Translations under genes and position numbers: made by a program
From: an uncultured Chromatiales bacterium
GTDB taxonomy: Bacteria; Pseudomonadota; Gammaproteobacteria; DATFLL01
Assembly: GCA_964561765.1 (NCBI GenBank)
Contig: CAZLQI010000009.1
Coordinates: forward strand, 37,266 to 101,265
Reading direction: 5' to 3'
DNA: 64,000 nt
Part shown: positions 36,595-58,721 of the stretch, one piece after another
Position numbering within the stretch: position 1 is the first letter of the stretch
Layout: the number at the start of each line of letters is the position of its first letter
The notes under the pieces: generated by a model
Databases searched by the model: none
What the model was told of the DNA's origin: nothing
What the model saw: the letters and a program-made list of their open reading frames with translations, nothing else

Positions 36595-37575
36595 ATGGCC
36601 GTCAATGATCTGCTGAGCCAGGACGAGATCGATGCACTGTTACACGGGGTCGATTCGGGTGATGTCGAGACTGAGGTCGATGAGGTCGAGGCCGGACAGG
36701 CGCGTAGCTACGATTTCAACAGTCAGGATCGTATCGTGCGTGGGCGTATGCCCACGTTGGAGATGATCAATGAGCGTTTCGCGCGCCATATCCGTATCAG
36801 CATGTTCAATCTATTGCGCCGCAGTGCCGAGATATCGGTCGGTGGGGTGCAGATGCTCAAGTTTTCCGAGTACCTACATAACCTGTTTGTGCCGACCAGC
36901 CTGAATATCGTCAAGGTACGGCCCTTGCGGGGGGTGGCGTTGTTCGTGCTCGATCCCAAGTTGGTGTTTATTCTCGTCGATAATTTTTTTGGTGGTGACG
37001 GGCGGTTTCACGCCAAGATCGAAGGCCGCGAATTCACGACTACCGAGCAGCGCGTGATCACGATGATCCTGGAACTGGCATTTAAGGATTTGAAAGAGGC
37101 ATGGAAGCCGGTGCTCGACGTGGATTTTGATTATGTCAACTCGGAGGTCAACCCGCAGTTCGCCAATATCGTTAGTCCCACAGAGGTGGTGGTGGTTAGT
37201 ACCTTTCATATCGAACTCGACGGTGGCGGTGGCGATCTGCACGTGACCATGCCCTATTCCATGGTTGAACCGATCCGCGATCTGCTCGATGCCGGCATTC
37301 AAAGTGATCGCGCCGAGAAGGACGATCGCTGGACCAATGCCCTGCGCGATGAGATCAAGGCGGCGGAGGTCGAACTGAGTTCGGTGCTGACCCAGACTAC
37401 GGTCTCGCTGCGCGAGATTCTGAATATGAAACCGGGGGATGTGATTCCCATCGAATTGCCCAAAAAAGTGACTGTGCTGGCAGAGGACATTCCGGTGTTT
37501 CGCGGTCGCTACGGTGTATCACGCGGCAACATGGCGGTGAAGATTCTCGAACATGTCGAGCGTCCCAAAAACTGA
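36595..37575 (+). CDS. fliM: flagellar motor switch protein FliM
   Basis: N-terminal CheY-P binding peptide LSQDEIDALL, CheC-like middle domain and SpoA C-terminus. Confidence 0.95.
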   Translation: MAVNDLLSQDEIDALLHGVDSGDVETEVDEVEAGQARSYDFNSQDRIVRGRMPTLEMINERFARHIRISMFNLLRRSAEISVGGVQMLKFSEYLHNLFVPTSLNIVKVRPLRGVALFVLDPKLVFILVDNFFGGDGRFHAKIEGREFTTTEQRVITMILELAFKDLKEAWKPVLDVDFDYVNSEVNPQFANIVSPTEVVVVSTFHIELDGGGGDLHVTMPYSMVEPIRDLLDAGIQSDRAEKDDRWTNALRDEIKAAEVELSSVLTQTTVSLREILNMKPGDVIPIELPKKVTVLAEDIPVFRGRYGVSRGNMAVKILEHVERPKN

Positions 37576-46928: not shown

Positions 46929-47321
46929 TTGGATAAGAGCATGAAAATTCTTGTTGTGGACGACTTTTCCACAATGCGGCGGATCATAAAAAATCTGTTG
47001 CGCGATCTGGGGTTTAACGACACCGCAGAGGCCGATGATGGCACGACCGCCTGGCCCGCGCTGCAAAATGGCGGCTTTGATCTGCTGATCACCGACTGGA
47101 ACATGCCGGGCATGCAGGGCATCGACCTGCTCAAACTGGTCCGTGCCGATGAACACCTGAGCAAGCTGCCGGTACTTATGGTGACTGCAGAGCAAAAGCG
47201 CGACCAGATTGTTGCGGCTGCACAGGCCGGAGTGAACGGCTATATTGTCAAACCGTTTACCGCCGTGACGCTCAAGGAAAAGCTTGAGAAAATCTTCGAA
47301 CGCATTGAAAGCAATGCCTGA
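46929..47321 (+). CDS. cheY: chemotaxis response regulator CheY
   Basis: 130 aa receiver domain with DD...D57 ([11 protein letters not shown]), T87 and K109. Confidence 0.95.
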
Positions 47322-47335
47322 GCAGGGGAGCCTGG

Positions 47336-48094
47336 ATGGAAGAGCACGTAGTCGACGAGAACACCTTGACGTATGCCCGCGAACTGGTCGCACTGATGGA
47401 AGCGGGAGACGAACAGAAGGCATCCTTACTGCTTGATAAACTGATGACCGAGCGCGAGAAGGACCTGTACCAGGAGTTGGGACGACTGACTCGCGATTTC
47501 CATGATACGTTGAAAAATTTTCAGTTCGATGATCGGCTGACGAACCTCGCCGAGGAGGAGATTCCGGATGCGCGGGAGCGATTGAACTATGTCCTGACCA
47601 TGACCGATCAGGCCGCTGATCGCACCCTGACCGCGGTGGAGGCCTCCTTGCCGCTGTGTGACGGCTTGGCGCAGGAGTGTGCCGGTTTGTCCAGCGACTG
47701 GGAGCGGTTTACTCATCGGGACATGGATGCAGAGGAATTTCGTGGATTGAGTCTGCGACTCAAGGATTTTCTCAACAACAGTAATGCCTCGGTGCACAGC
47801 TTGCGTGAGAATCTCAATGAGGTATTGATGGCGCAGGATTTTCAGGATCTGACCGGGCAGATCATCAAACGTGTCGTTACGATGGTCGAAGAACTGGAGG
47901 CGAGTTTGGTCAATCTGATTCGTATCAGTGGACAAAAATTCAAAACCGAGACGGAAAAAACGACGCAACCGGTGTCGGCCGATAGCAAGGACGTCAGCTG
48001 CGAAGGACCGGTCGTTCCGGGTGTGACGGGCGCCCTGGATGTGGTTTCCGGGCAGGATGATGTGGATGACCTCCTGTCCAGCCTGGGCTTCTAG
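47336..48094 (+). CDS. cheZ: CheY-P phosphatase CheZ
   Basis: Helical protein with the catalytic Gln region (QDFQDLTGQIIKRV) and a C-terminal CheY-binding peptide DDVDDLLSSLGF. Confidence 0.85.
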   Translation: MEEHVVDENTLTYARELVALMEAGDEQKASLLLDKLMTEREKDLYQELGRLTRDFHDTLKNFQFDDRLTNLAEEEIPDARERLNYVLTMTDQAADRTLTAVEASLPLCDGLAQECAGLSSDWERFTHRDMDAEEFRGLSLRLKDFLNNSNASVHSLRENLNEVLMAQDFQDLTGQIIKRVVTMVEELEASLVNLIRISGQKFKTETEKTTQPVSADSKDVSCEGPVVPGVTGALDVVSGQDDVDDLLSSLGF

Positions 48095-48128: not shown

Positions 48129-50219
48129 ATGGCGTTGGACGTTGACGACGAGATTCTTCAGGATTTCCTGATCGAGGCGGGTGAGATCCTCGAACAACTG
48201 GGTGAGCAACTGGTTGACCTGGAACAACGCCCGCAGGATGTTGAACTGCTCAATACGGTATTTCGTGGATTTCACACGATTAAGGGTGGCGCTGGCTTTC
48301 TGGCGCTGGAGTCGATGGTGGCGCTGTGCCATCGTGCGGAGGATGTCTTTAATCTCCTGCGCAACGGCGAACGCCAGGTCGACACGCAGTTGATGGATAT
48401 CATGTTGCCGGTGCTCGATATGCTCAATGATCAGTTCGAGAGCCTGCGTGCCGGTGAGGAACCGGCGGCGGCGGAGCCGGCCCTGCTGGCGGCACTTGAG
48501 GCGTTGTCATTACCGGCGGCTCCGGTAGCGGCACCTCCCCCGCCAGCGCCGCCTGCCTCGCCAACGTCATCGGTCCCGTCCACCCCGCCGGGGCAGTGTG
48601 CCGGCGCGGCGGTGGCGAGTGGCAGCGGTGAGGACATCACGGACGAGGAATTCGAGGCCCTGCTTGATGCGATGGAGGGCTCCGGCGAACAAGGCGATGC
48701 AGTCGCCGCTGGCGTGGTGACACCCGCTACCGGGGCAGCATCGTCCAGTGATGAGATCAGTGGCGAGGAGTTTGAAACGCTGCTCGATGATCTGCATGGC
48801 AAAGGGCAGTTCAACGGACAACCGGCAACGCTGGCCGCTGGAGTAAACGCAGGCAAGGTGGGCACGGAGGATATCACGGATGATGAATTTGAGGCCTTGC
48901 TCGATGGCCTGCACGGCAAGGGGAAGTTTAGTGGGGAGGTAGTTGCCCATCCCGTGGCAAAACCTGGCGCACCGGTTGGTGCGAGTGCAACGGCCGCGAC
49001 GGGCGGGCGCACGGCTGGGGCACGCGCCGAGAAGCACGAAGGGGTACAGACCGAGACGACAGTGCGTGTCGATACCAAGCGTCTTGATGACATTATGAAT
49101 CTGGTCGGTGAGCTGGTGCTTGCACGCAACCGCCTGGCGCGCCTGGAAGAGAACATGGCCGATGAGGCAATGGCCAAGGCCGTTAGTAATCTCGATCTGG
49201 TGACCGCCGATTTGCAGACGGCGGTGATGAAGACCCGTATGCAGCCTATCAAGAAGGTCTTCGGGCGTTTTCCCCGTGTAGTGCGCGACCTGGCCCGTCA
49301 CCTGGAAAAGGAAATCAAACTGGAGCTCCAGGGCGAGGAGACCGATCTCGACAAGAATCTGGTCGAGGCGCTGGCCGATCCCCTGGTGCATCTGGTGCGC
49401 AACGCCGTCGATCACGGTATTGAATTGCCGGATGTGCGCGAGGCCGCCGGCAAGCCGCGTAGCGGTACGGTGATTCTTTCCGCCGAGCAGGAAGGCGATC
49501 ATATCTTGTTGTCGATCGAAGACGATGGGGCAGGCATGGATGTCAATGTCCTGCGTAACAAGGCGGTTGAGAAAGGTCTGCTCGATGCCGATGCCGCAGC
49601 CAGGCTGGATCGGCGCGATACCTACAATCTGATTTTTATGCCGGGTTTTTCCACCAAGACCGAGATATCCGATGTCTCTGGACGCGGTGTGGGTATGGAT
49701 GTGGTCAAGACGCGCATCGCGCAGCTCAATGGCACGGTTGATATTGATTCACAACTTGGCAAGGGCAGTCGCCTGAGCATCAAGGTCCCGCTGACACTGG
49801 CGATCATGCCCACCCTGATGGTCAAGCTGGACACGCAGATGTTTGCGCTGCCACTGGTCAGCGTCAGCGAGATATTCCACCTCGATCTGAGCAAGACCAA
49901 TACCGTCGATGGACAGCTGGTGGTCATGGTGCGTGCGCACGCCCTGCCGTTGTTTTACCTCAGTCGCTGGCTGATCAAGGGATGTGAGAACCGTTCCCTG
50001 CCGGGGTTTGGCCATGTCGTGGTGGTGCAGGCGGGTACGCAGCGGGTCGGTTTTGTGGTTGATCAGCTGATTGGCCAGGAAGAGGTGGTCATCAAGCCGC
50101 TGGGGACCCTGTTACACGGTATCGACGGGCTGGCGGGGGCCACGATAACGGGCGATGGCCGTATCGCTATCATTTTGGATATTCCGGGGATCATGGACAA
50201 ATATGCCCGGCGCGCATAA
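48129..50219 (+). CDS. cheA: chemotaxis histidine kinase CheA
   Basis: P1 Hpt (FRGFHTIKGGAG), dimerisation domain, HATPase (DDGAGMD...GRGVGMD) and a CheW-like P5; the linker carries three acidic tandem repeats. Confidence 0.95.
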   Translation: MALDVDDEILQDFLIEAGEILEQLGEQLVDLEQRPQDVELLNTVFRGFHTIKGGAGFLALESMVALCHRAEDVFNLLRNGERQVDTQLMDIMLPVLDMLNDQFESLRAGEEPAAAEPALLAALEALSLPAAPVAAPPPPAPPASPTSSVPSTPPGQCAGAAVASGSGEDITDEEFEALLDAMEGSGEQGDAVAAGVVTPATGAASSSDEISGEEFETLLDDLHGKGQFNGQPATLAAGVNAGKVGTEDITDDEFEALLDGLHGKGKFSGEVVAHPVAKPGAPVGASATAATGGRTAGARAEKHEGVQTETTVRVDTKRLDDIMNLVGELVLARNRLARLEENMADEAMAKAVSNLDLVTADLQTAVMKTRMQPIKKVFGRFPRVVRDLARHLEKEIKLELQGEETDLDKNLVEALADPLVHLVRNAVDHGIELPDVREAAGKPRSGTVILSAEQEGDHILLSIEDDGAGMDVNVLRNKAVEKGLLDADAAARLDRRDTYNLIFMPGFSTKTEISDVSGRGVGMDVVKTRIAQLNGTVDIDSQLGKGSRLSIKVPLTLAIMPTLMVKLDTQMFALPLVSVSEIFHLDLSKTNTVDGQLVVMVRAHALPLFYLSRWLIKGCENRSLPGFGHVVVVQAGTQRVGFVVDQLIGQEEVVIKPLGTLLHGIDGLAGATITGDGRIAIILDIPGIMDKYARRA

Positions 50220-50359
50220 CGCGTCGGGTACTCGTGGCATAGCGATCAAAAAGGAGCTGGGGTGGAACTCAAACAGTCAGGCAGGTTACCGCGTTGGTGG
50301 GTAGGGCAATCAGCGCAGTGCAACAAGACATTACGTGTGGTGATAGCAGGGAGGCGGGG

Positions 50360-51421
50360 ATGAGCGTCAAGGTGCTGGTTGTCGATGACTCGCGGTTTTT
50401 CCAGCGTCGGGTCACAGAGATACTGAATGCCGATCCCCTGATCGAGGTTGTGGGTACCGCCGGCGATGGCGCGGAGGCCATTACGCAGGTTGTCCACCTC
50501 AAACCGGATGTGATCACGATGGATATCGAGATGCCGGTTATGGATGGCATCACGGCCGTGCGCAAGATCATGGCGCGCCACCCGGTCCCGGTGCTCATGT
50601 TCTCTTCACTGACCACTGATGGCGCACAGGCCACGCTTGATGCCCTGGATGCCGGGGCGGTGGATTTTTTGCCTAAGCGCTTTGAGGATATTTCCAAGGA
50701 TCGGGAAGAGGCCAAACGGTTGCTATGCCAGCGGGTGCGTGCCATTGCACGCACCCGTACCGCTGCGCTGCGCCGTGCCCCTGCCACGGTGGCTGGCGCG
50801 CTCCGAACGGTGCCGGTCGTAGCGCCTGTTGCGCGACACATGCCCCGCGGACGGCCCGTTAAACTGGTGGCGATCGGGACGTCGACCGGTGGTCCCGTTG
50901 CCTTGCTGGAGGTCCTGCGCAAGCTGCCTGCCAGTTGTTCGGTGCCCTTGGTGCTGGTTCAGCACATGCCGGCGACTTTTACCCCGGCGTTTGCCAAGCG
51001 CCTTGACCAGCAATGCGCGATTCGGGTTCGGGAGGCGCAGGATGGCGATCGACTCGAACCCGGTCTGGCCTTGCTGGCACCGGGTGGGAGTCAGATGAGT
51101 GTGGAACGCAACGGGCATGAGGCGCGTGTGCGTATTCGCGAGGGAACGGCGGATGAGACTTATAAACCCTCGGTGGACATTACCTTCAGTGCGGTGGCCA
51201 GGCTGTTCCCCGCCGATACCCTGGCGGTCGTTCTGACCGGCATGGGGGCCGATGGGCGTGAAGGGGTGCGTGCGCTCAAGCAGGGCGGCTCGACGGTTTG
51301 GGTTCAGGATGAGGCCAGTTGTGTGGTCTATGGTATGCCGGCTGCCGTGGCGGAGGCGGGCCTGGCGGATCAGGTGATCGCACTGCCGGAAATTGGTTCT
51401 CTTCTGGCACAACGGGTCTAG
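50360..51421 (+). CDS. cheB: chemotaxis methylesterase CheB
   Basis: Receiver domain ([10 protein letters not shown]...D56) plus a methylesterase domain with Ser/His/Asp (GTSTGGP, HMP, GMGADG). Confidence 0.95.
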
Positions 51422-52203: not shown

Positions 52204-53073
52204 ATGTCTCGCAGGAAGCCAAAGCATGAAGAGAACGAGAATCTAGACCGCTGGTTGGTGTCCTATGCCGATTTTATCACCCTGTTGTTTGCGTTTTTCG
52301 TCGTGATGTATTCGATCTCCTCGGTCAATGAAGGAAAGTATCGCGTATTGTCGGACTCGATCATTGCCGCATTTCGAACGCCACAGAAAAGCACCAAACC
52401 CATCAGCCTCAGTCCTAAGGCGAAGTCGGTCATGATCAACGAAGGTGCCCCGGTTAGAGCACCGCTGATCCAGATACCCCATGCGCCGGGATTGCAGATG
52501 CAACACATCGCCAGCCAGCTGCGGGATGCGCTGCGCCCGTTGATCGATAAAAAACTGATCAAGGTCTCCAGCAACAAACTATGGGTTGAGGTGGAGATGA
52601 GCACTCACATCCTGTTTCCTAGTGGCAGTGCGGTGCTGGAGAGCACGGCAACGCCCGTTCTGCGCGCCTTGGCCGGTGTGTTGAATAAGTTGCCCAACCC
52701 CGTGCAGGTCGAAGGATATACGGATAATGTGCCGATCAGCACTCTGGTCTATCCTTCCAACTGGGAACTCTCCACAGCGCGCGCCTCCAGTGTGGTGCGC
52801 CTGTTTATGCGGGCTGGCGTGGACCCCGGGCACATGGCCGCGATCGGCTATGGTGAGTATCGCCCGCTGGCCAGCAACGCGACGGCGGCGGGGCGCAGCC
52901 GTAACCGCCGTGTCGTGGTGGTGATCCTGGCCAATAAAAAGGCCCGTCATGTACTGGAAACCGGGCGGGGCGTAGCGCCGACCAGCACTGCGCTAACTGG
53001 CGGGCCGGCACGCGCACCGAGTCAGCCCGTTATTGCCACGCCGGGTGTCGCAGGCCGGAGGACGATACCATGA
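52204..53073 (+). CDS. motD: flagellar stator protein MotD (second MotB-type stator, OmpA domain)
   Basis: TM with the conserved Asp (WLVSYADFITLLFAFFVVMY) and a C-terminal OmpA-like domain (EGYTDNVPI...NWELSTARASSVVR). Confidence 0.85.
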   Translation: MSRRKPKHEENENLDRWLVSYADFITLLFAFFVVMYSISSVNEGKYRVLSDSIIAAFRTPQKSTKPISLSPKAKSVMINEGAPVRAPLIQIPHAPGLQMQHIASQLRDALRPLIDKKLIKVSSNKLWVEVEMSTHILFPSGSAVLESTATPVLRALAGVLNKLPNPVQVEGYTDNVPISTLVYPSNWELSTARASSVVRLFMRAGVDPGHMAAIGYGEYRPLASNATAAGRSRNRRVVVVILANKKARHVLETGRGVAPTSTALTGGPARAPSQPVIATPGVAGRRTIP

Positions 53074-53852
53074 GGATCTGGGCCGTCGCCAATCAGAAGG
53101 GAGGTGTGGGTAAGACCACTACCGCCGTTACCCTGGCGGGACATTTGTGCCGGATGGGCAGTGCCACATTGCTGGTCGACCTTGACCCGCATGGCTCGAT
53201 GACGGCGTACTTCGGCCATGATCCGGACGCGATCGAACGCGGTGTCTATCAACTCTTTCAGTCCGAAGCCTTGCCAACCACCGCGCTCATTGTGCCGACC
53301 GCGAACGAGGGCTTGTCGCTGATGCCGGCCACCACGGCCCTGGCCACGCTGGATCGTCAACTGGGCACTCAGGAGGGCAAGGGGTTGGTGATTTTGCACG
53401 CCTTGAAAGGGCTCGATGCACACTATGAGCATGTCATTATCGATTGTCCACCAGTCCTGGGTATCCTGATGATCAATGCCCTGGCGGCGTGCCAGCACCT
53501 TCTGGTGCCGGTGCAGACCGAGTTTCTTGCACTCAAAGGGCTGGAACGCATTATTCACACTCTGGAGATGATCACGCGCTCGCGCCGCCAGCACTTGCCC
53601 TACACCATTGTGCCGACGATGTTCGACCGCCGCACACGTGCCTCCATCAGCAGCCTGCGCGCGCTGCGCAAGCGCTATGGCGAGGAACTCTGGGACGGGG
53701 TCATTCCGGTCGATACACGCTTTCGTGAGGCGAGTATGCACGGTCAGCCCCTGTCCATCATGCAGCCGCACTCGCGCGGTGCGCTTGCCTATGGGACCTT
53801 GCTCGAACGACTGCTTGCGCAGAGCCCGGTCAGGCATCTCAACGTGGTATAG
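53070..53852 (+). CDS. ParA/MinD-family ATPase of the chemotaxis cluster (ParC-like)
   Basis: Deviant Walker A NQKGGVGKTT; position motD-parA-cheW as in Pseudomonas and Vibrio. Confidence 0.85.
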   Translation: MRIWAVANQKGGVGKTTTAVTLAGHLCRMGSATLLVDLDPHGSMTAYFGHDPDAIERGVYQLFQSEALPTTALIVPTANEGLSLMPATTALATLDRQLGTQEGKGLVILHALKGLDAHYEHVIIDCPPVLGILMINALAACQHLLVPVQTEFLALKGLERIIHTLEMITRSRRQHLPYTIVPTMFDRRTRASISSLRALRKRYGEELWDGVIPVDTRFREASMHGQPLSIMQPHSRGALAYGTLLERLLAQSPVRHLNVV

Positions 53853-53856
53853 GTCC

Positions 53857-54612
53857 ATGGCAAAAGACAACATACTGGTTGATCAGAAGCTCGCGCTGTC
53901 CCTGTTTCTGGACGCCCTGTTACACGAGCCGGCCCCGGAATCGGTAGTGGCGCCGGAACGGGTGACGACACTCCCTGAGCAGACCCCGCCGTCACTTGCC
54001 GTACTCAGACCGGTGCGGGTCCCACCGCAACAGCTGCCTCCTGTTGCCTTGCCCGAACCTGCGCTCAAGACACCGCTGACCCCTCCCGTTGTGTCCCTGC
54101 CCAGGAGTGGCGCACCTGCGCTGGCAACGCCGGATGCCGCGACCGAGGTGCTGCGCCCGGATTGGGCTACCGAGGCGTTTCAGATCCTGCTGTTCAAAGT
54201 GGCCGGACTGGGGCTGGCGGTGCCACTCATCGAACTCAATGGCATCGTTGAATGGACCGACGCGGTGACCCCCTTGCCCGGTCATGCCGATTTCTACCTC
54301 GGTCTGCTACAACATCGGGATTGCAGCGTGCCGGTGGTGGACCCCGCTCGTCTGGTTTTGCCTGCGCAGCAGTTTGCGGCCCTGACGCAGGACCCGCGCG
54401 AGCGCGTGCGCCGTATCGTGCTCATTGACGAGGGGCGTTGGGGGTTGGCCTGCGATCAGGTCAGCGAGGTCATCACGGTCAAGCCTGAGCAAGTGCGCTG
54501 GCGCGGTCGCCGCACACAACGCCGCTGGCTGGCCGGTACCGTGATCGATCATATGTGTGCTTTGCTCGACACCCAGGCGTTTGCCCGCTTGCTGGAGTCC
54601 GGGTGGGGATAG
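53857..54612 (+). CDS. CheW-domain protein with a Pro-rich N-terminal extension
   Basis: C-terminal CheW-like domain (FQILLFKVAGLGLAVPLIELNGIVEW...); start at ATG 53857 (MAKDNILVDQ). Confidence 0.7.
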   Translation: MAKDNILVDQKLALSLFLDALLHEPAPESVVAPERVTTLPEQTPPSLAVLRPVRVPPQQLPPVALPEPALKTPLTPPVVSLPRSGAPALATPDAATEVLRPDWATEAFQILLFKVAGLGLAVPLIELNGIVEWTDAVTPLPGHADFYLGLLQHRDCSVPVVDPARLVLPAQQFAALTQDPRERVRRIVLIDEGRWGLACDQVSEVITVKPEQVRWRGRRTQRRWLAGTVIDHMCALLDTQAFARLLESGWG

Positions 54613-55497: not shown

Positions 55498-55914
55498 ATG
55501 ATGAGCGCACTGTTTTCGCTGACCGACCCCTGGTTACCCGTGGCCGGCGTGGTTACCTCCGTCGTATTGCTGCTGGTGACGCTCGTGGTGCTGAGCGCGG
55601 TCGTGCGCCGTATGCGCCGGCGTCTGTTGCACCAGGATGAGAGGATTTCGGCCCTGCGCCAGGATCTGCGTGCCCTGACCACCGCCGCGGTTGGGGTCGG
55701 TGAGCGGGTACTGGGCGCCGAGCGCCGGCAACGCCGTCTTGCCGAGCGCCAGGACCAGCTCGACCTCTACGATGCCGCCAACCAGCCCTACGAACAGGCC
55801 ATCCGTCTCGTGCACAAGGGGGCCGGTGTCGATGAACTGGTCGATATCTGCGGCCTCAATCTTGGCGAGGCGGAACTTATCCGCATGCTCCACCGGTTAG
55901 ACAAGAGCGCTTGA
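55498..55914 (+). CDS. DUF2802-like small membrane protein (flagellar-cluster associated)
   Basis: N-terminal TM plus a charged coiled-coil; position after cheW as in Pseudomonas; family assignment is from memory. Confidence 0.5.
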   Translation: MMSALFSLTDPWLPVAGVVTSVVLLLVTLVVLSAVVRRMRRRLLHQDERISALRQDLRALTTAAVGVGERVLGAERRQRRLAERQDQLDLYDAANQPYEQAIRLVHKGAGVDELVDICGLNLGEAELIRMLHRLDKSA

Positions 55915-57764: not shown

Positions 57765-58721
57765 ATGGCACACAATAATCTCTGGTACGTTCGGCGCGGG
57801 CGCACGCTCAAGGGGCCGTTCCCGGCCGGTCTGATCTCGCGTTATATCCTGCTGGAGCGGATTCGTCTGAGTGACGAACTGAGTCAGGATCGCACGACCT
57901 GGAAGCCGGTGAAGGCGTGTGCCGAGTTGATCCCGGAGGTGCTGAAGGCCGATCCGGAGGATGAGGACGCCCAGCGTCGGCTTGAGGCGGCCCGGCGCTG
58001 GGCGGATGAACGGCGTGGGGAGGATCAGCGGGCCTGGGGGGGCGCCGGGGATCAGCCTGGAGAGGTGGCCGAGGTGGCCGAGGTGCGCGATGCGGGCGAG
58101 CGGCGTAGTGCGGAGCGCCGGCGCACGGAGTCGGAGGAGCAGGCCCAGTTCCGCCAGATCCATCAGCGCTTGATCGGGGCAGCGCACCAGAAGCAGCACT
58201 ACCTGTTGCAGTTGTCGATGATCCTCATCGTGGTGGCGGTGGTCATCGGTGCGGCCATGTATTACACACCGAGCAAGACGATAAATACGGCGGACTGCAC
58301 GGCGCCGCCGGGCCTTGGGGTCAACTGGAGCAATTGCAGGTTACAGGGTATTCAGGTGCCGGGGAAAGATCTGCGCGGGGCACATCTCAATAGCACTGAT
58401 GCCTCGGGTAGTGACCTCGCCGGTACCAATTTGCGCCAGGCGGTGTTGTCCTACGCCGATCTGAGTCTCGCCAATCTGCGGGGTGCCGATCTGCGTGACG
58501 CACAGTTGGTCGGTACCAATCTGCGCCGGGCCAATCTGGCCCAGGCAGATCTGCGCCGAGCCAATCTTACCTATGCCGATCTCACCGGTGCCCGCCTGAC
58601 GGGAGCGCAGTTGCAGGGCGCACGCCTGGATCACGCCATCTGGGTGGATGGTCAGACCTGTCAGCCGGGCTCGTTGGGGCGTTGCCTGACCGGGGTCCCC
58701 GCCGTGCCGCCCGTTCGTTAG
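57765..58721 (+). CDS. GYF-like (DUF4339) domain - TM - pentapeptide-repeat protein
   Basis: N-terminal WYVRRGRTLKGPFPAGLISRYILLERIRLSDELSQD (DUF4339/GYF-like), Arg/Glu-rich linker, TM helix, then about 14 A(D/N)LxG pentapeptide repeats. Confidence 0.75.
   Translation: MAHNNLWYVRRGRTLKGPFPAGLISRYILLERIRLSDELSQDRTTWKPVKACAELIPEVLKADPEDEDAQRRLEAARRWADERRGEDQRAWGGAGDQPGEVAEVAEVRDAGERRSAERRRTESEEQAQFRQIHQRLIGAAHQKQHYLLQLSMILIVVAVVIGAAMYYTPSKTINTADCTAPPGLGVNWSNCRLQGIQVPGKDLRGAHLNSTDASGSDLAGTNLRQAVLSYADLSLANLRGADLRDAQLVGTNLRRANLAQADLRRANLTYADLTGARLTGAQLQGARLDHAIWVDGQTCQPGSLGRCLTGVPAVPPVR

Follow-up and report, generated by a model that had tools for sequence, protein, structure and literature searches.

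In the Vibrio literature (PMC5706961, PMC7534058), the chemotaxis kinase CheA carries a region called the localization and inheritance domain (LID), which lies between P1 and P3, is encoded in a cluster with parC and parP, and is found only with ParC/ParP (PMC5706961). The region was set by two-hybrid truncations, and review articles show an additional domain inserted between P2 and P3. According to papers citing Ringgaard 2014, the LID of Vibrio parahaemolyticus CheA suffices for interaction with ParP, and in Vibrio cholerae residue W305, in the CheW-like AIF domain of ParP, is needed for CheA binding (Alvarado et al., PMC5706961). A literal search for motif strings led us to a second description, in which Pseudomonas putida CheA has three 19-residue repeats (DEITDAEFESLLDQLHGKG, with the core EFExLLD), repeats of this kind occur exclusively in CheAs from organisms that have ParC and ParP, and overlap the V. 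parahaemolyticus LID, and AlphaFold3 models place the repeats recurrently but inconsistently against ParP residues 253 to 274 (Pulido-Sanchez et al., bioRxiv 10.1101/2025.10.27.684771). Here we analyze the cheA gene in a 64,000-nucleotide stretch of DNA (the window; contig CAZLQI010000009.1) from an uncultured Chromatiales bacterium, the product of which carries three copies of the same motif in the linker between P1 and P3. The three EFExLLD copies and their assignment to ParP have already been described, and the window CheA is a further case; three points were not met with in the literature searched, namely that in Xanthomonadales the motif has moved to ParP, that it covaries with a patch on ParP, and that it has a formal similarity to FliM.

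A preliminary description of this DNA had proposed that the linker carries three tandem acidic repeats that stand in for a P2 domain and dock CheY. The repeat peptides that it quoted are present in the linker (Table 1), and sequence, pattern count and shuffling all confirm that an acidic (D/E)EFExLLD motif occurs there three times, although with other sequence between the copies and not as a strictly tandem array. The underlying DNA makes up a single family of three 62-nucleotide copies, 61 to 73% identical and spaced by 120 and 117 nucleotides; as the copies are diverged and do not lie head to tail, Tandem Repeats Finder did not call them. The pattern EF[DE].L[LM][DN] has three matches in the 72,454 residues of the six-frame open reading frames of the window, all of them in the CheA linker, with 0.0004 expected from the composition of CheA; only 1 of 100,000 shuffles of the linker gives even one match, and a chance origin of the repeats is excluded. 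In each pair of repeats, 5 to 6 of the 22 codons differ only synonymously, which marks the repeats as old copies under purifying selection. Repeat 1, which ends in ...LLDAMEGSGEQ, lacks the tail LHGKGxF seen in the other two.

The absence of P2, for which structure prediction had been named beforehand as a check, also stood. Pfam places Hpt at residues 8 to 104 of the window CheA, H-kinase_dim at 310 to 369, HATPase_c at 417 to 556, and CheW at 563 to 690, and the search found neither P2 (PF07194) nor the CheY-binding domain (PF09078) at an E value of ≤0.01. Neither family was matched in the precomputed Pfam annotation of the 120 best full-length homologs (58 to 74% identity) or in 8 more distant motif-bearing CheAs. 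In an AlphaFold2 model built from a 50-sequence alignment, P1 is confident to about residue 126 and P3 to P5 from about residue 316; the intervening linker is disordered, with a predicted local distance difference test score (pLDDT) below 50, except for three isolated 12-residue helices, one per repeat (Table 1), with block-mean pLDDT values of about 66 to 75. In this model the repeats lie outside any folded domain. P2 occupies the same place between P1 and P3 but is an alpha/beta fold of about 70 residues, whereas the model shows no beta strand, and hence no compact alpha/beta fold, in residues 127 to 315, and a PDB search with the linker gave no match. Lack of P2 is not unusual, since over half of all CheAs lack the domain (PMC10782961) and the F6 CheA models in a Vibrionales survey likewise have no distinct P2. 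Unlike the LID as drawn, then, the window CheA and the Vibrionales AlphaFold models have no folded P2, and what stands as a "domain" is a disordered tether bearing short helices. The CheA P1-P3 linker is the counterpart of the LID described in Vibrio: the repeated core lies between P1 and P3, and parC and parP lie in the same chemotaxis cluster.

Table 1. Positions of the features discussed (window numbering unless a locus is named)
Feature	Coordinates	Strand	Details
cheA	48129..50219	+	696 residues; P1-linker-P3-P4-P5, F6 type, without P2; from open reading frame, Pfam and AlphaFold2 model
P1-P3 linker (CheA residues 127-315)	48507..49073	+	Ala/Pro/Gly-rich, predicted disordered, bears the three motifs
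Repeat 1 (CheA residues 167-188)	48627..48692	+	GEDITDEEFEALLDAMEGSGEQ; tail-less (without LHGKGxF); AlphaFold2 helix 172-183
Repeat 2 (CheA residues 207-228)	48747..48812	+	SDEISGEEFETLLDDLHGKGQF; full motif with LHGKGxF tail; AlphaFold2 helix 212-223
Repeat 3 (CheA residues 246-267)	48864..48929	+	TEDITDDEFEALLDGLHGKGKF; full motif with tail; AlphaFold2 helix 251-262
parC-like gene	53070..53852	+	ParA/MinD-family ATPase, 260 residues; Pfam AAA_31, CbiA, ParA, MipZ; position of parC in Vibrio/Pseudomonas
parP-like gene	53857..54612	+	251 residues; Pfam CheW 1.1e-16
Basic Trp/Arg patch (ParP residues 213-227, CheW-like domain)	54493..54537	+	VRWRGRRTQRRWLAG; candidate receptor for the acidic CheA motif
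FliM N-terminal peptide	36613..36642	+	LSQDEIDALL; fliM 36595-37575; Pfam FliM; best non-CheA match to the repeat model
CheZ C-terminal peptide	48053..48091	+	QDDVDDLLSSLGF; cheZ 47336-48094; Pfam CheZ 6.8e-72
cheY	46929..47321	+	Pfam Response_reg 1.8e-30; product is the partner proposed in the preliminary description
Xanthomonadales ParP genes	L081 10001-11116; L082 10001-11023; L084 8001-9080

The motif is conserved throughout the CheAs related to that of the window. Every one of the 120 best full-length homologs, which come from Pseudomonas and from metagenome-assembled genomes (MAGs) of Thiohalomonadaceae/Thioalkalispiraceae, has two to four copies; the MAG sequences are the nearest to the window CheA, at 63 to 74% identity. 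In a second set of 80 CheA loci, drawn from one-genome-per-species contigs and including Pseudomonas, Marinobacter, Shewanella, Marinomonas, Methylomonas, Alteromonas, Pseudoalteromonas, Colwellia and Oceanospirillum, all 80 have one to four copies, and a V. cholerae CheA fragment in the database has three. The median spacing of the motifs is 41 residues. The 440 unique instances give the consensus x-D-[DE]-I-[TS]-[DE]-[DE]-E-F-[ED]-x-L-L-D-x-L-H-G-K-G-x-F, in which the Ile is present in 433; this residue and the Thr/Ser, Leu, His and Gly consensus positions fall outside the regular expression with which the instances were collected. In the 50-sequence alignment the sole invariant columns of the linker are an I, E, F and L in each repeat, while the spacers are unconserved. 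Repeats 2 and 3 are additionally invariant at D, H, G and G, so that the invariant residues are I210, E214, F215, L219, D220, H223, G224 and G226 in the one and I249, E253, F254, L258, D259, H262, G263 and G265 in the other. The first copy is tail-less in 154 of 200 homologs, as it is in the window, and later copies mostly carry LHG·KGxF. To judge from these residues, each helix seems to be capped by I-[TS]-D-D-E at its N-terminal end and by L-H-G at its C-terminal end. The repeats of P. putida CheA share with the window the DEITDAEFESLLDQLHGKG-type motif, the number of copies and the proposed partner region on ParP; the window differs in its tail-less first copy and in its host, a GC-rich, sulfur-oxidizer-like gammaproteobacterium.

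When the repeat region was searched with HMMER against 1.84 billion cluster representatives, it gave 161 matches at an E value of ≤0.001, consisting of CheAs, CheA fragments and seven full-length non-CheA, ParP-like proteins, and in this exhaustive search the motif was confined to CheA and ParP-like proteins. Among the 80 loci, 70 have a recognizable ParC and ParP downstream of cheA, and in 9 of the other 10 the sequence stops no more than 3 kb past cheA. That leaves one informative exception, the locus L060 (5151-9997) on a gammaproteobacterial MAG contig, which reads cheA-cheB-motC-cheW, with motD, parC and parP missing; its CheA keeps two cores, EEFDALLDQFQS and AEFDALLDAIQR, that have no LHGKGxF tail, and its cheY and cheZ are intact. 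This locus is either a natural control for loss of ParC/ParP or an assembly artifact. The distribution of the motif thus follows ParC/ParP, not the absence of P2.

In the window itself, the orthologs of the parC-like product in the 70 loci are 44 to 68% identical to it and lie in the same position; its NCBIfam matches to ParA/MinD types were below threshold, and NCBIfam contains no ParP model. The ParP-like protein has an N-terminal peptide, LALSLFLDALLHE (residues 12 to 24), a Pro-rich linker and a CheW-like domain (residues 109 to 243), a layout that agrees with the description of ParP (PMC5706961). The Trp-containing surface in its CheW-like domain is the basic segment VRWRGRRTQRRWLAG, whose Trp is presumably equivalent to V. 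cholerae W305. The signature of this patch, V[RK]WRxxRx-[KR]RxWLAGTV, is common to the ParPs encoded beside motif-bearing CheAs: 64 of the 70 window-type ParPs fit the strict pattern, the other 6 are near-variants, and the net charge of the segment is +2.6. In a putida-group ParP it falls at residues 260 to 274, inside the region 253 to 274 contacted in the AlphaFold3 models of the preprint. This co-occurrence of an acidic CheA motif with a basic ParP patch is the strongest new support for ParP as the partner.

Taking these observations with the Vibrio work, we consider it on balance probable that the repeats are the short linear motifs of the LID and act as a multivalent tether between CheA and the ParC/ParP system for array positioning, with the basic Trp/Arg patch on ParP as the most probable point of attachment. 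Each repeat would be a capped acidic amphipathic helix of 12 residues (I-T-D-D-E-F-E-x-L-L-D-x-L-H-G), and the helices would be strung about 40 residues apart on a disordered P1-P3 tether. Each helix would dock on VRWRGRRTQRRWLAG in the CheW-like domain of ParP, the gene for which lies 3.6 kb downstream, and ParP would itself be held by the ParA-like ATPase ParC, so that the linker would couple CheA to the system that builds, stabilizes and positions polar chemoreceptor arrays. With several copies per CheA and two CheAs per dimer, the tether would be multivalent, which would explain how ParP lowers the dissociation of CheA from arrays. The binding of the LID to ParP is taken here from the Vibrio literature, and our own analysis supplies the anatomy, the conservation, the co-occurrence with ParC/ParP and the covariation of the patch; from these we infer that the repeats are binding elements and the patch their receptor.

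The seven non-CheA matches show the motif on a different scaffold. In these proteins a disordered Ala/Pro linker, on which the motif occurs two or three times, joins an N-terminal L-x-D-D-Y-L-x-x-L-L-G peptide to a C-terminal CheW domain. In three Silanimonas/Pseudoxanthomonas-type flagellar clusters (L081, L082 and L084) the motif-bearing protein is encoded in the parP position, directly after parC, and on a short contig (L083) a motif-bearing ParP-like gene directly follows a ParA-like gene. Of 121 Xanthomonadales ParP-like proteins, 120 carry one to four copies between the N-terminal LxDDYLxxLLG peptide and the CheW-like domain, and in an AlphaFold2 model of one of them the motifs form isolated helices at residues 82 to 92, 123 to 133 and 165 to 175 of a disordered linker. 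Their motif, I-[ST]-[DE]-D-E-F-E-A-L-L-D-x-L-H-G, is nearly identical to that of CheA, and the LHG is present in 260 of 280 copies. The adjacent CheAs are short: that of L081 (550 residues) has neither the motif nor P2, and those of L082 and L084 (580 to 581 residues) have one copy each. We therefore rejected a clean swap, in which Xanthomonadales CheA would lack the motif and ParP carry it; a single copy is still present in the Pseudoxanthomonas CheAs, and it is only the Silanimonas-type CheA that is without any.

The basic patch is absent from all 121 of these ParP-like proteins, in which the segment resembles that of ordinary CheW and has a net charge of −3.5. The KGxF tail is likewise found in 0 of 280 Xanthomonadales ParP motifs, against 380 of 457 non-first copies in window-type CheAs. 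It is weakly supported that the tail covaries with the ParP patch, such that the core would bind a conserved partner and the tail the patch; because the motif tails of V. cholerae and Shewanella lack the Phe, although Shewanella ParPs have the patch, we keep this only as a weak lead. In the CheA P5 domain, the segment that aligns with the ParP patch reads LPKRVRG or LPRAVRG in the Xanthomonadales CheAs of L081 (5853-7505) and L082, versus LGTLLHG or LGKMLQG in window-type CheAs; these two sequences hint that the basic receptor surface might have shifted to P5 of CheA in clusters whose motif is on ParP.

Several points weigh against the ParP patch as the docking site. For the authors of the P. 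putida preprint, the contact between the repeats and ParP comes only from AlphaFold3 models, and the CheA interface is inconsistent between models (bioRxiv 10.1101/2025.10.27.684771). A two-hybrid study of Pseudomonas aeruginosa proteins reports an interaction of ParC with CheA as well (bioRxiv 10.1101/330878). The L060 locus, being one MAG contig, is weak on its own. The receptor of the Xanthomonadales ParP motif must be something other than the basic patch, and the existence of motif-bearing ParPs without a patch speaks for a partner that both lineages have conserved, for instance ParC or CheY.

The preliminary description had likened the repeats to the peptides of FliM (LSQDEIDALLHG, from 36613) and CheZ (DDVDDLLSSLGF, ending at 48091), both of which are present as it quoted them. 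When the window was scored with a gapless position-specific model built from positions 3 to 12 of the 440 CheA repeats, FliM LSQDEIDALL ranked 4th of 67,639 positions, behind only the three repeats themselves, and it ranked 4th again with the full 22-mer; the CheZ C-terminal QDDVDDLLSSL ranked 38th of 67,104 (the top 0.06%). The likeness is statistically real for FliM, the best site in the window outside CheA, and weaker for CheZ. ITDDEFEALL aligns position for position with LSQDEIDALL, ten consecutive positions agreeing as [IL]-[ST]-x-D-E-[FI]-[ED]-A-L-L, and all of these peptides share an acidic amphipathic helix of the form hydrophobic-acidic-x-L-L. The absolute scores of FliM and CheZ against the model are, however, near or below zero bits, and a profile hidden Markov model of the motif gave no significant match to either, so that what they have in common is a helix pattern, not detectable homology. 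The CheA motif also differs from both in being internal and repeated rather than terminal and single, in its invariant Phe, in its LHGKGxF tail and in its linkage to ParC/ParP. Tentatively, and with less confidence than we place in the ParP patch, the core could be a peptide like the FliM N terminus whose receptor, ParC or CheY, is conserved in all lineages with the motif, the ParP patch being a lineage-specific addition.

The stronger of these two candidates, and the main rival to the ParP patch, is ParC, although we regard direct binding to it as unlikely. The acidic helix would then bind this ParA/MinD-type ATPase in the way that the EIDAL of FliM binds FlhG, ParC would have CheA, or in Xanthomonadales ParP, as its multivalent client or activator, and the patch on ParP would offer a secondary contact. 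The analogy is one of pattern: FliM EIDAL binds both CheY-P and the MinD/ParA-type ATPase FlhG and in Shewanella putrefaciens is necessary and sufficient for FlhG binding, and the FliM N terminus is the nearest match to the motif in the window outside CheA. ParC as the partner would explain both the presence of the motif on either CheA or ParP and its restriction to ParC/ParP genomes, and the P. aeruginosa two-hybrid interaction fits it. The N terminus of ParP, which is the ParC-binding end in Vibrio, has in both lineages a conserved [YF]L[DE]xLL that, anchored on LL, reads hydrophobic-acidic-A-L-L, like EFEALL. That peptide, however, ranks only 64th of 69,779 on a 6-residue version of the model and is unremarkable on longer ones, and the Vibrio two-hybrid experiments map the LID to ParP, at the Trp of its CheW-like domain, in an Escherichia coli host that has no ParC.

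The proposal that we set out from, that the repeats dock CheY (and possibly CheB), is in our judgment unlikely, a little more so than binding to ParC, although either protein might also be an additional partner. In this scheme the peptides would bind the alpha4-beta5-alpha5 face of CheY, concentrate CheY beside P1 and so replace P2. The window CheA does lack P2, FliM is the top match outside CheA and the CheZ C terminus also scores highly, and CheY-eYFP colocalizes at the P. aeruginosa pole with a CheA of the P2-less type (PMC12410967). CheY is moreover 74% identical between the window and L081, lineages in which the motif sits on different scaffolds, compared with 44% for ParC. Against this, the motif tracks ParC/ParP, and most P2-less CheAs do not have it, as the 161 matches among 1.84 billion representatives indicate; the Silanimonas-type CheA is without both P2 and the motif, and Xanthomonadales carry the motif mainly on ParP. 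In L060 the repeats have decayed along with the loss of parC and parP while cheY and cheZ are intact. The Phe is invariant where FliM has Ile or Val, the tail has no counterpart in FliM or CheZ, the CheA motifs are internal where those peptides are terminal, and the motif model failed to match either protein significantly. We found no paper in the literature searched that proposes docking of CheY to the EFExLLD motif. The P1-P2 and P2-P3 linkers are known to influence the kinetics of E. coli CheA, and the AlphaFold2 helices are of only moderate confidence, but a purely intramolecular role, in which the helices would transiently touch P1, P4 or P5 and tune autophosphorylation or linker dimensions, leaves unexplained the restriction to ParC/ParP, the transfer of the motif to Xanthomonadales ParP and the covariation with the ParP patch, and we consider it very improbable.

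The cluster around cheA runs in the order fleN-like gene, fliA, cheY, cheZ, cheA, cheB, motC, motD, parC-like gene, parP-like gene and cheW, which is typical of Pseudomonas/Vibrio flagellar chemotaxis clusters. The mechanically called cheY frame begins at TTG, with the likely true start at the ATG at 46941 (MKILVVDD), and that of cheB (50294-51421) likewise begins at TTG ahead of the receiver domain, with the likely true start at the ATG at about 50360. Two open reading frames 3′ of cheW (55498-55914 and 57765-58721) have recognizable counterparts in the same order downstream of cheW in L060 (10023-10436 and 10553-11041); one of them encodes a small membrane-anchored protein, and the product of the other has the N terminus MAHNNLWYVRRGRTLKGPFPAG, followed in the window by pentapeptide-like repeats.

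Among the other motif-bearing CheAs, a metagenomic protein (P0233; L085 1451-3610) encoded in a STAS-REC-CheA cluster has two copies of the motif, followed by a possible P2-like alpha/beta segment, whose likeness to P2 was not confirmed by a PDB sequence search, and then by a Globin domain (PF00042, 3.6e-11) before P3. This protein breaks off in P4 on a short contig; as its sequence reads, it would be a kinase with a built-in heme sensor. Two CheA linker fragments with the motif that are labeled E. coli (P0270; NKQ94748.1) and Streptococcus pyogenes (P0020) come from contigs of 411 and 245 nucleotides and almost certainly represent contamination of those assemblies by reads of Vibrio- or Pseudomonas-like bacteria. 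The linker of the L060 CheA also has unrelated low-complexity repeats: NKPIDNKPIDNKP, GAEQPGAEQPG and AASGSAASGS. We rejected an assignment of motif-bearing CheAs to the SHOCT family (PF09851) as a chance overlap of patterns: the window CheA had no match, the partial matches in homologs (ITxxEFE) were below threshold, and the one protein just above the cutoff (P0271) had no individually significant stretch.

Taken together, these results present the "P2 + LID" region of the main chemotaxis kinase of Vibrio, Pseudomonas, Shewanella and related bacteria as a disordered tether with a few strongly conserved peptides, which turns the LID from a vague domain into a small, mutable target. Substitution of the Phe/Leu-Leu residues in the three motifs should part array positioning from kinase signaling, and Xanthomonadales, in which the motif has moved to ParP, offer a natural experiment that narrows down what the partner can be. 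If the receptor does prove to be one that is conserved in all lineages with the motif, a single "hydrophobic-acidic-A-L-L" helix code would wire together the motor switch, the flagellar-number ATPase, the array-positioning ATPase and the kinase in polar-flagellate gammaproteobacteria.

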